Shown: positions 61,163 to 63,597 of the stretch, piece by piece
Layout: each line of letters opens with the position of its first letter
Position numbering within the stretch: position 1 is the stretch's first letter
Assembly: GCA_032127745.1 (NCBI GenBank)
Contig: JAQBHL010000041.1
Coordinates: 10,230-74,229 of the forward strand
Length of the DNA: 64,000 nt
DNA from: Acidobacteriota bacterium
GTDB lineage: Bacteria; Acidobacteriota; Vicinamibacteria; Fen-336; JAGNNV01
Reading direction: 5' to 3'
The notes under the pieces: model-generated
What the model was told of the DNA's origin: nothing
The model's database searches: none
What the model saw: only the letters and a program-made list of their open reading frames with translations
Translations under genes and position numbers: made by a program

Positions 61163-61759
61163 ATGGAACCGTTCCTCCTGTTTTTCGCCTGTGGAATTCT
61201 CCCCTGGACTTTCTTCCAGGCCGCCGTGCTGGAGGGTTCCACGGTCCTGGTGAGTAGTGGCGGCTTGCTTAAGAAGGTGCTCTTCCCTCCCGAGGTCCTC
61301 CCCACCGTCAGCGTGATCACCAATCTCTTCAACTTCGTGCTGTCCCTGCCCATCCTGCTCTTCTTTGTGGTCTGGAACCACAAACTCTCCTGGGCCGCTC
61401 TGCTCGTTCCCCTGCCGCTTCTGGTTCAGGTGATTCTGGCCCTGGGCATGGCTCTGGCCCTCTCCGCCCTCACCGTTCACTTCCGCGACCTGACCAACAT
61501 CCTCGGCCACCTCTTCCACCTCTGGTTCTTTGCCTCCCCCATCCTCTACGTGTACGGCTCCACTCACGGCACTCTTCGAGCCTTTCTTCGGCTCAATCCC
61601 ATGAGCCACATCATGGTGAGTTATCAGCAGATGCTGTTCGAGGGCCGATTCGACCACTGGGCCGGTCTGGCCGCGGCGGCCGCCGTCGCCGTTCTCGCCT
61701 TTGCCTTCGGCTGTTTTCTCTTCGATCGGCTTCGTGACGCCTTGGCGGAGGAGCTATGA
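61163..61759 (+). CDS. ABC-2 type polysaccharide exporter permease (Wzm/KpsM/TagG-like)
   Basis: Listed ORF from ATG 61163. Conserved N-terminal sequence (..LFRYRALIESLVSRELKARYRGSILGFLWSFINPLL..) continues upstream in frame to about 60960 without a canonical start (see findings). Confidence 0.8.
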   Translation: MEPFLLFFACGILPWTFFQAAVLEGSTVLVSSGGLLKKVLFPPEVLPTVSVITNLFNFVLSLPILLFFVVWNHKLSWAALLVPLPLLVQVILALGMALALSALTVHFRDLTNILGHLFHLWFFASPILYVYGSTHGTLRAFLRLNPMSHIMVSYQQMLFEGRFDHWAGLAAAAAVAVLAFAFGCFLFDRLRDALAEEL

Positions 61760-63597
61760 GTGCGCCGCCCGCCCACTCTGGCACCGGGGTCGCCATCATG
61801 GCTCGCGACCTGACCAAGGTCTATCGAAAATACCTTCACAAGAACCAATTCACCACCCTCAAGAGCGCCATCGTCTCCGGATCCCTGATCCGTGATCTAA
61901 GCCCCAGCGAACTTTTCACCGCCCTCGATCATGTCTCGTTCGACGTTCCGCGCGGCTGCACCTACGGAATACTCGGCGAAAACGGCTCGGGGAAGTCCAC
62001 CACCCTGAAGCTCCTCTCCGGCATCACCAAGGCCTCGAGCGGCACCCTCGAGGTCTCGGGGCGTGTTTCGGCGCTGATTGAACTGGGCGCCGGCTTTCAC
62101 CCGGAGATCAGCGGGCGCGAAAACGTGGCCATCAACGGGGTCATGCTCGGCCTCAGCCGGGCGGAGGTGACGAGGCGCTTCGACGAAATAGTCGAGTTCG
62201 CGGAGATGCAGGACTTCATCGATGCTCCGGTGAAGACCTACTCGTCCGGGATGTATGCCCGTCTCGGCTTTGCCGTGGCCATCCACGTGGATCCCGACGT
62301 TCTGCTGATCGACGAGGTGCTTTCGGTGGGCGACGAGGCTTTTACCAGGAAATGTCTGGAGAAGATTGGCGAGTTTCGCCGGCGGGGAAAGACCATCGTC
62401 ATCGTTACCCACAGTCTTGGTCTGGTGGAAAAGATGTGCGACGAAGCGCTCTGGCTGCGCAAGGGCAAAGCCATGGACTCGGGCGACCCCAAAAGAGTCA
62501 TCGACGCGTATCTGAGCTTCGTGGCCGCTCGGGAGAATGAATTGCTCGGGAAGAAAGAGCACCTCGAAGTGACCCCGGGCGACGCGCGAATCACCGGTGA
62601 AGCGCCCGAGGAAAAGCGGCGATGGGGAAGCGGGGAGATGATTTTCACCGACGTTCGCCTGAAGGACGCGGAGGATCGCACCGCCCACGTCTTTGTTCCC
62701 GGCGACACCCTCAGACTCGAACTCAAGGGCGAGGCCAGGGCTCCGGTGGAGGACTTCGTCTTCGGCCTTGGCATCTTCACCGCCGACGGCACGGCGGTTT
62801 ACGGAACGAACACCCACATCGAGCAGTACAAGTCTCGGCGAGCCGAGGGTGTCTTCAGCGTCACCATCGAGATCCAGGATCTGAGACTCGTCGAAGGCAG
62901 CTATTTGCTCGATGTCGCGATACACCGGAAAGACGGGACGCCGTATGACTACCATCGCGGCCTCTACGCCCTCAGGGTGCGCAGCCGGGTGAAGGATGTG
63001 GGGGTGTACCGGCCGCACCACACCTGGACCTTCTCCGCGGCGCTCCAGATCGACGAACCGCCGGAACGCCAAGAGCTCGAGCTTCGAGCGGTGGAGCGAG
63101 TCGAGCGAAGGAAGGCCGCAGATACCATAGAGGCCCTCCACCACGACCGAGCGAGCTTTCGGGCACTGGGCAGAATCGTGGTCTTCACCAACGGCTGCTT
63201 CGACATCCTCCACGCCGGACATGTCCGCCTGTTGGAGCGCGCCCGCGCCGAGGGTGATGTCCTGGTCGTGGGCATCAACTCGGATGCCTCCGTGAAGCGG
63301 CTCAAAGGCGACTCCAGGTCGGTGATCGAGGAGGCCGAAAGGGCGGAGGCACTCCTGGCCCTCGAATGCGTGGACCGGGTTGTGATCTACGACGAAGACA
63401 CTCCGCTCGAGACCATCGAGGCCTTGCGCCCCGACGTTCTGGTCAAAGGCGCCGACTGGGCGCTCGAAGACATCGTGGGTCGTGACGAGGTCGAGAGTAT
63501 CGGCGGGCGGGTGGTGCGGGTCGAGCTCCTGCCCGATCGGTCGACCACCGCGCTCATCGAGAAGGCGGAGGGCAGAGCCCACCCCGCTTCCAAGTGA
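61756..63597 (+). CDS. Polysaccharide ABC exporter ATP-binding protein (Wzt-like) fused to a C-terminal HldE-domain-II / cytidylyltransferase-like nucleotidyltransferase
   Basis: ABC ATPase ([14 protein letters not shown], LSGG-type [11 protein letters not shown], ..[12 protein letters not shown]..). A Wzt-C-like beta-sandwich follows (..[22 protein letters not shown]..). After a coiled linker comes ..[66 protein letters not shown].. (HxGH nucleotidyltransferase). ATGA overlap with wzm. Confidence 0.85.
   Translation: [613 protein letters not shown]

Follow-up and report, generated by a model that had tools for sequence, protein, structure and literature searches.

Wzt proteins of the carbohydrate-binding-domain (CBD) type, the ATPases of ATP-binding cassette (ABC) glycan exporters, recognise terminal caps such as methyl groups, and the O antigen of Aquifex aeolicus uses 3-O-methyl sugars (PMC9445017). 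In HldC of Burkholderia pseudomallei (BpHldC), N30, N59, K69 and K116 are described as important for function, with K100 contributing through its backbone, and the enzyme is reported to require a large movement of its C-terminal helix (PMC7993394). In a 64,000-nucleotide stretch of an Acidobacteriota genome (assembly GCA_032127745.1, contig JAQBHL010000041.1, positions 10,230 to 74,229; hereafter the window), counterparts of these two proteins are joined in one gene, wzt::hldC. As judged from its sequence, the product is a Rosetta-stone protein, an in-frame read-through fusion of neighbouring wzt and hldC genes. Quite probably the gene arose when the two final genes of a conserved wzm-wzt-hldC module fused, and gives a bifunctional protein; established here are which domains it has, that catalytic residues are kept, that it stems from neighbouring genes and that the gene trio is conserved. 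Neither a Wzt-HldC fusion nor a wzm-wzt-hldC module was found described in the literature searched, and nothing relevant was found there on heptose or lipopolysaccharide (LPS) in Vicinamibacteria and Acidobacteria. The gene and its parts are as follows, with residue numbers referring to the fusion protein.

61756..63597, forward strand: wzt::hldC, the whole fusion open reading frame (ORF), 613 amino acids (aa); an open frame, with the same three Pfam domains in at least 113 homologous clusters
61792..62529, forward strand: nucleotide-binding domain (NBD) of the Wzt ABC ATPase, residues ~13-258; Pfam ABC_tran, with A. aeolicus Wzt as top PDB match
62530..62613, forward strand: linker 1, between NBD and CBD, residues ~259-286; low confidence, poorly conserved
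62614..63054, forward strand: Wzt_C carbohydrate-binding β-sandwich (the CBD), residues ~287-433; Pfam Wzt_C, aligning with the A. aeolicus CBD
63055..63126, forward strand: fusion junction, or linker 2, residues ~434-457; placed by comparison with split relatives (loci L004 and L005)
63127..63570, forward strand: nucleotidyltransferase domain of the HldC or HldE-domain-II type, residues ~458-605; TIGR02199, PDB 5X9Q, predicted α/β fold
63211..63222, forward strand: HxGH nucleotidyltransferase motif, H486-A-G-H489, read directly from the sequence
63319..63321, forward strand: Ser522 codon TCG in the KGxxRP motif (KGDSRS in the window); Pro in all 112 other fused members

The frame opens with ATG and runs for 613 codons to a TGA, uninterrupted by any stop or shift of frame; at its head it shares 4 nt with the end of wzm (ATGA), and its TGA overlaps the GTG start of mfd (GTGA). 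Three Pfam matches along it are far beyond chance: ABC_tran at residues 57-188 (E = 1.3e-20), Wzt_C (PF14524) at residues 287-419 (E = 1.2e-27; 97.1 bits against a cutoff of 30.4) and CTP_transf_like at residues 477-571 (E = 3.9e-19). The first 443 residues correspond to full-length A. aeolicus Wzt, NBD and CBD together (PDB 8DKU/7K2T; phmmer E = 2.6e-71), the Foldseek match to the same protein reaches E = 3.7e-38 over 411-415 columns, and the top PDB matches of the ATPase half are the NBDs of Wzt and TagH. Walker A, the signature YSSGM, Walker B (LLIDE) and the H-loop (THS) are all present and, across 45 fused members, invariant or nearly so. An NBD, a C-terminal Wzt_C domain and an adjoining Wzm permease are the marks of a CBD-type Wzt, and at the level of sequence the protein carries the marks of both a CBD-type Wzt and an HldC. 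An earlier note on this DNA had read the same succession of exporter ATPase, Wzt_C β-sandwich and HldE-domain-II HxGH nucleotidyltransferase, which Pfam, TIGR02199 and PDB 5X9Q bear out; the peptide strings it quoted are all present in the translation, and the interval 63050-63170, where it had advised a check for a frameshift, reads cleanly in frame.

The tail scores above the curated cutoff (181.5 bits) of the NCBIfam model TIGR02199, rfaE_dom_II, with residues 467-605 reaching 188.7 bits in the whole protein and 192.6 bits when the tail is taken alone, and its nearest solved structure is BpHldC (PDB 5X9Q, E = 1.9e-35). Profile searches thus assign the tail to the nucleotidyltransferases, through CTP_transf_like and TIGR02199. 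Invariant in the 45 fused members are N479, G480, F482, D483, H486, G488, H489, N508, D510, S512, K517, G518, R521, K564, G565, D567, W568 and S596; N479, N508, K517 and K564 among them are the equivalents of BpHldC N30, N59, K69 and K116. The motifs specific to HldE domain II, NSDxSxxxxKGxxR, DE(D/E)TP and KGADW, are likewise invariant, and the tail carries R595-S-T-T598, the C-terminal (R)STT nucleotide-binding motif, with T597 conserved in at least 90% of the 45. By homology, the tail would catalyse the formation of ADP-heptose. Given that both halves look intact, the product is most likely bifunctional.

Alternatives to this reading were judged separately and overlap in part. One holds that the tail is not a heptose-1-phosphate adenylyltransferase and instead activates another substrate, such as glycerol-3-phosphate or a sugar-1-phosphate for a cap, or acts as a nucleotide-binding sensor. 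Such a tail would suit a TIGR02199 score barely over its cutoff, an ATPase half that scores best against TagH exporters (though far under their cutoffs), the lack of other heptose genes nearby in the window and the P522S change private to the window protein. Against it stand the invariant motifs specific to HldE domain II, the TagD model TIGR01518 at 46.7 bits (cutoff 165.4) beside 192.6 bits for rfaE_dom_II, PDB matches of ~1e-9 to TagD beside 1.9e-35 to HldC, and a relative's stand-alone HldC that also passes TIGR02199 (184.5 bits). A tail of this other kind is improbable, and the specific identification with TagD was rejected on these figures. Two further candidate identities were tried and set aside: TagH for the ATPase half (230 against a cutoff of 538 bits and 189 against 320 bits, PRK13545/PRK13546, with only the NBD matched), and HldE for the protein (no PfkB domain; PRK11316 at 164-166 bits against a cutoff of 521, with only its positions 306-472 matched).

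The origin of the fusion is visible in its split relatives. The closest unfused Wzt proteins (P0118 and P0119, 65-68% identity) occupy the same slot and are followed by a separate CTP_transf_like gene of 156-159 aa; more generally, the stand-alone hldC that directly follows wzt in split relatives encodes 156-162 aa. In four loci of this kind (L004, L005, L067 and L027) wzt ends and hldC begins within a shared ATGA or GTGA, a classic translational-coupling arrangement, and a single indel or frameshift could consequently fuse the two genes. In L004 and L005 the overlap falls at the junction point. Linker 2 of the window protein consists of the former Wzt C-terminal tail and ~10 bridging residues, running into the complete N-terminus of a stand-alone HldC (L005 counterpart: SAATPLRELVAERQAWRSAGRRVVFTNG), whose native N-terminal helix is retained at residues 458-470 behind a short low-confidence tether.

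How widely the two genes travel together was surveyed in 80 species-representative loci from GTDB genomes, a sample that leaves aside the window's own clade and whose counts are not frequencies; the state of each locus was set by an ORF test, since the coverage column of the scan joined tblastn pieces from different frames. By this test none of the 80 loci outside the window's clade carries a fused wzt::hldC. The genes are split and adjacent in 38, labelled Vicinamibacteria or Vicinamibacterales, Aminicenantes or Aminicenantia, unclassified Acidobacteria and a few evidently mislabelled metagenome-assembled genomes (MAGs). In another 3 hldC is displaced, with a gene inserted in L013 and L014 and a broken frame in L033. 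The 39 loci with no nearby hldC, 4 of them cut by contig ends, belong to Thermoanaerobaculia, Holophagales, Multivoradales, deltaproteobacteria and others, and usually lie away from atp genes. Eight contigs (L017, L030, L035, L037, L043, L046, L070 and L012) carry the atp-wzm-wzt-hldC locus under odd taxon labels, as Bifidobacterium breve, Clostridia, Eubacteriales, Patescibacteria, Chrysiogenales or Actinomycetes MAGs, and are probably mis-binned or mislabelled.

In a neighbour-joining tree built on the Wzt part of 191 sequences (without support values) every member of the window's clade is fused, the sister clade has some split members among a fused majority, and deeper among Vicinamibacteria the fused, split and hldC-less states interleave. 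Fitch parsimony on this unsupported tree counts ~10 changes between fused and unfused, a rough indication of several fusion or fission events. Such lability bears on the possibility that the fusion is a neutral accident, in which adjacent LPS-related genes overlapping by 4 nt were joined by one indel and the joined form persists because the ends involved are free, saying nothing about a particular pathway except that both genes serve the envelope. The one-step route offered by the ATGA/GTGA overlap, the repeated changes of state, the loss of hldC from some syntenic loci and the tolerance of unrelated insertions between wzt and hldC, for example a 352-aa ORF in L014, are all what such an accident would leave behind. 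An accident of this kind is nonetheless doubtful, given that wzt-hldC adjacency is kept from Aminicenantes-type loci of 33-44% GC to Vicinamibacteria of 63% GC while the downstream genes change, and that glycan-pathway genes join the module in relatives; persistence of this kind usually reflects co-function.

The fused form itself is not unique to the window, although a look-up of the exact window protein on contigs gave no record. Among 5.8 billion protein clusters searched, at least 113 distinct ones at the 90%-identity level carry all three Pfam domains, at lengths of 586-647 aa and with 53-92% identity to the window protein, so that the fusion which the earlier note had proposed to seek in other genomes is indeed found there. 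They are drawn from NCBI, JGI, ENA and Logan assemblies, and several of the proteins are named 'Vicinamibacteria bacterium' (a class of Acidobacteriota) at NCBI, where the annotation of the fusion names the tail only (for example MBK5257036.1), a systematic mis-annotation. The window's clade comprises 57 clusters at 77-100% identity, all fused and all 607-613 aa long except P0057 at 605 aa. Breadth of this order bears on the question of an assembly or sequencing artefact, in which a frameshift error would have merged two separate genes. Split and fused forms do differ by one frame change, and broken frames occur in some loci from long-read MAGs, such as L033. Yet 57 independent clusters from four sources are fused without exception, the junction is conserved at the protein level in the window's clade (identity 0.70), and fused genes with this gene order around them occur on contigs of 275 kb (L001) and 1.24 Mb (L002). 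An artefact is thus extremely improbable.

The architecture had been called unusual in the earlier note, and in one sense it is. When 1.84 billion 50%-identity representatives were scanned exhaustively with HMMER, the best 150 matches included only one fused representative (P0121), and this single cluster points to an architecture confined to one family. The degree of novelty is smaller than that wording implied: the fusion follows simply from a conserved operon, and enzymes of another kind are also found at the C-terminus of Wzt proteins, namely sulfotransferase domains (Sulfotransfer_1 or Sulfotransfer_3) after Wzt_C in P0241 (678 aa) and P0259 (680 aa), which may be fusions to cap or modification enzymes. 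Also numerous were Wzt-like proteins of about 770-826 aa in which the NBD matched twice.

What the fusion does beyond holding two domains together depends on how they are connected. An AlphaFold2 (AF2) model computed with a homologue alignment predicts three confident domains, the NBD, an all-β sandwich (residues 295-433) and a Rossmann-like α/β nucleotidyltransferase (residues 458-604) with a predicted local distance difference test score (pLDDT) of about 80-93. Between them pLDDT falls below 50 (residues 260-287 and 439-451), and the overall predicted TM-score (pTM) of 0.43 means that no defined packing between domains is predicted. The linkers are variable and, by the model, disordered and without fixed docking. 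The 'charged coiled linker' of the earlier note was accordingly right as to a linker, a low-confidence tether at residues ~434-457, and wrong as to coiling, no coiled coil being predicted in the linker region of the fusion protein. With the fused members grouped as close, middle and far, identity in the NBD is 0.94, 0.76 and 0.71, in the CBD 0.78, 0.58 and 0.49, and in the HldC domain 0.79, 0.64 and 0.55; over the same groups linker 1 falls from 0.58 to 0.15 and 0.10, and linker 2 from 0.70 to 0.31 and 0.07. Since the tail is conserved like the CBD while linker identity drops, the tail appears constrained as a working domain, and the tethers drift.

These features bear directly on the proposal, also made in the earlier note, that the fusion makes export depend on precursor synthesis by channelling or gating, with the tethered HldC feeding ADP-heptose to assembly, or with its state licensing ATP hydrolysis or export by Wzt. 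The conservation of the wzt-hldC association across distant lineages and the fused state of every member of the window's clade are compatible with such a role, and the CBD of A. aeolicus modulates the ATPase on cap binding, so that C-terminal modules can in principle regulate Wzt (PMC9445017). Most relatives, however, have split coupled genes and a free HldC in the same module, the states interleave, the disordered linker is unconstrained in length and sequence, no interface between domains appears in the AF2 model, and ADP-heptose is a diffusible cytosolic product. Further, the C-terminal helix that reportedly must move far in BpHldC (PMC7993394) is left free here, as in the stand-alone enzyme. 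Channelling or gating is therefore unsupported and unlikely.

Under the reading as a bifunctional product of the wzm-wzt-hldC module, residues ~13-433, ATPase and cap-binding domain, would, as a dimer working with Wzm, power inner-membrane export of an undecaprenyl-diphosphate-linked, end-capped glycan, and residues ~458-605 would convert heptose-1-phosphate and ATP to ADP-D-glycero-β-D-manno-heptose. A flexible tether of ~25 residues would hang the enzyme below the transporter, at the cytoplasmic face of the membrane and in fixed 1:1 stoichiometry. The link between the two activities would lie in the pathway, in that the exported glycan, its cap or an LPS core acceptor may need ADP-heptose, and the fusion would contribute co-localisation and stoichiometry, not an allosteric gate.

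The module sits between the ATP-synthase operon and mfd, near the replication origin, in Vicinamibacteria and related Acidobacteriota and Aminicenantes lineages. In the window its surroundings are as follows.

48155-49444, reverse strand: dnaA, in the replication-origin region of the window
55921..60959, forward strand: atpH-atpA-atpG-atpD-atpC, from translations and Pfam
60974..61759, forward strand: wzm, the ABC-2 permease partner, 261 aa (Pfam ABC2_membrane, E = 1e-15)
63594..64000, forward strand: start of mfd (transcription-repair coupling factor), extending past the window end; 78% identical to the N-terminus of an L002 gene with Mfd Pfam domains

The NCBIfam model for Wzm/RfbD-type permeases gives 80 bits on the wzm product, under its cutoff. 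Its putative start is a non-canonical ATC (60974-60976), with GAGG 6 nt upstream and 14 nt past the atpC stop; the frame is open back to that stop, and a conserved N-terminus, IFAQIRTLFRYRALIESLVSRELKARY, precedes ATG 61163, where the first canonical start is found. Because ATG 61163 would drop this N-terminus, the ATC is favoured and is the probable start. L004 and L005 have ATG at the corresponding position and L002 has ATA; in L002 the gene caller shortened the homologue to 231 aa.

Around fused genes at 56% and at 85% identity the order is (parA-parB…)-atpH-atpA-atpG-atpD-atpC-wzm-wzt::hldC-mfd-PPIase (peptidyl-prolyl isomerase), and the atp synteny upstream is common to L001-L005 and most acidobacterial loci. 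Downstream of hldC, Aminicenantes-type loci are wholly different (DUF5916/CBM9, Peptidase_C26, NamZ, TPR). Since the downstream genes vary by lineage, the conserved unit is wzm-wzt-hldC. A scan for promoters and terminators around the module gave nothing above shuffled expectation, which speaks neither for nor against co-transcription with atp and mfd.

The window from 41729 to 56538 is the chromosomal origin region, with gyrA, gyrB, dnaN and dnaA on the reverse strand, then yidC, parA, parB, a bactofilin gene and a thiL-like gene on the forward strand, and the module lies only about 12 kb from dnaA. Other genes of the window include glmU, glmS, uvrD, secDF and obg-nadD-rsfS. The earlier note had placed the pair away from any glycosyltransferase (GT) cluster, and this holds: the sole such cluster, at 1-8532 on the reverse strand, is about 53 kb away. 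It comprises a PMT_2-like (ArnT-type) membrane GT, a short-chain dehydrogenase/reductase (SDR) of the 4,6-dehydratase/epimerase kind and three GT2 enzymes resembling polyprenyl-phosphate sugar transferases (ArnC/AglJ/PpgS-like), and its make-up suggests periplasmic glycosylation from a lipid carrier, with no relation to Wzm/Wzt. In or beside it, a 900-aa ORF (4342-7044, reverse strand), in a frame not favoured by GC3-based gene picking, and a 315-aa ORF (8557-9504, reverse strand) have no Pfam or NCBIfam matches. Three candidate heptose genes of the window were rejected. The CTP_transf_like gene at 24346-24900 is no second hldC but nadD, lying between obg and rsfS; the SDR at 2597-3589 falls short of HldD (83 bits against 274.6), and the HAD-family gene at 11735-12601 is Cof-type and not GmhB.

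In some relatives the module is expanded. Around P0090 (72% identical, unfused; L086 2552-8336 and L087 603-6872) the order is wzm, a gene for a 556-aa class-I S-adenosylmethionine (SAM) methyltransferase, wzt, one for a 646-aa protein, and last a stand-alone hldC, whose product is the HldC that passes TIGR02199 at 184.5 bits. The 646-aa protein of L087 has only a weak match to a putative-glycosyltransferase family in PDB and NCBIfam searches. The methyltransferase, which has a long C-terminal extension, recalls WbdD-type chain terminators by its size and its place between wzm and wzt. Low-GC Aminicenantes-type loci carry a methyltransferase of ~250 aa and MTS type between atpC and wzm (L008 4431-5195; L030 4440-5195; L035 and L066 4437-5198; L046 4462-5187), which could either act on RNA in a housekeeping role or belong to the glycan module. 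The inserts between wzt and hldC are a class-I SAM methyltransferase in L013 (7332-7950; PDB matches around 4e-6) and, in L014 (7422-8480), the 352-aa ORF, HNH-type nuclease-like by eye.

The recurrent association with methyltransferases fits, by analogy with methyl-capped systems, a capped-glycan export pathway that may include hldC. O antigens assembled on undecaprenyl diphosphate with long stretches of heptose exist, as in the heptan of Helicobacter pylori (PMC5371381), and this precedent makes a heptose-containing substrate plausible though unproven. A bolder conjecture, to which we give little credence, is that the trio works as a module of its own for a conserved, 'common-antigen'-like acidobacterial glycan, with heptose as its monomer or as its chain-terminating cap, the heptose being made at the transporter as ADP-D,D-heptose and recognised by Wzt_C. 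If so, synthesis of the cap donor and export would be coupled on one polypeptide in the fused clade, a new way to link nucleotide-sugar supply with ABC-transporter-dependent glycan export.

Several points weigh against the reading as a bifunctional heptose-pathway protein. The substrates of tail and transporter alike are assigned from homology only, the tail exceeds the TIGR02199 cutoff by only ~7-11 bits, and adjacency and easy fusion could be neutral. The window protein alone among the 113 fused members has Ser522 in place of the Pro of KGxxRP; that Pro is also present in the other member of its own 90% cluster, and Ser522 is either a private substitution or a base or sequencing error. Within the 64-kb window gmhA, a heptose kinase (HldE domain I), gmhB, hldD and a GT9 heptosyltransferase were not found, the kinase and gmhA/gmhB being genes that the earlier note had recommended looking for. 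Finally, L020, L029, L059 and L084, which are Vicinamibacterales and syntenic, have no hldC at the atp-wzm-wzt-mfd site, and the wzt-hldC link is consequently not obligatory. L025 keeps the same synteny without hldC at the site; in these five loci hldC has been either lost or relocated in the genome.

Vicinamibacteria and Aminicenantes are abundant, mostly uncultured bacteria of soils and sediments whose envelope glycans are essentially unknown. A trio kept together and repeatedly fused is a Rosetta-stone signal that places ADP-heptose metabolism and an ABC-exported glycan in one pathway, and it predicts an exported glycan that contains or depends on heptose. More broadly, the C-terminus of Wzt, just past its strand-swapped CBD, tolerates appended enzymes, which is useful for engineering or imaging such transporters.

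Set beside the described systems, the window protein combines familiar parts. Like WzmWzt of A. aeolicus (7K2T/8DKU; the E. coli O9a type), it aligns over residues ~13-433 with an NBD and a CBD and has its Wzm permease gene directly upstream, stop and start overlapping; it differs in its extra C-terminal enzyme domain and in the placement of its genes between the atp operon and mfd near oriC, outside any GT or O-antigen cluster. Stand-alone HldC (BpHldC 5X9Q, and the enzymes of L004, L005 and L087) matches the tail over the full length of the domain, in the HxGH motif and the equivalents of N30, N59, K69 and K116, in the native N-terminal helix and in the free C-terminal helix, whereas the window's HldC is tethered covalently to Wzt through its N-terminus and has Ser for Pro after the KGxxR arginine. 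TagGH/TagD of wall teichoic acid synthesis likewise pairs an ABC-2 exporter with a small HxGH enzyme of the cytidylyltransferase fold in one pathway, and the highest NCBIfam bit score of the ATPase half is to TagH, yet short of the cutoffs; TagH has no Wzt_C domain, and the window organism is a diderm acidobacterium. In bifunctional HldE (RfaE) of E. coli an HldC module is also fused to a pathway partner, and the tail aligns to HldE 306-472, but there the partner is the PfkB-type heptose kinase of domain I, and in the window the ATPase of an ABC transporter. P0241 and P0259, database proteins not found characterised in the literature searched, share the succession of NBD, Wzt_C and an appended C-terminal enzyme of a glycan pathway; the enzyme there is a sulfotransferase and here a nucleotidyltransferase, in unrelated lineages. 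Measured against all of these, wzt::hldC is not a new machine: both of its modules are well known, and their fusion is a trivial product of overlapping neighbours.

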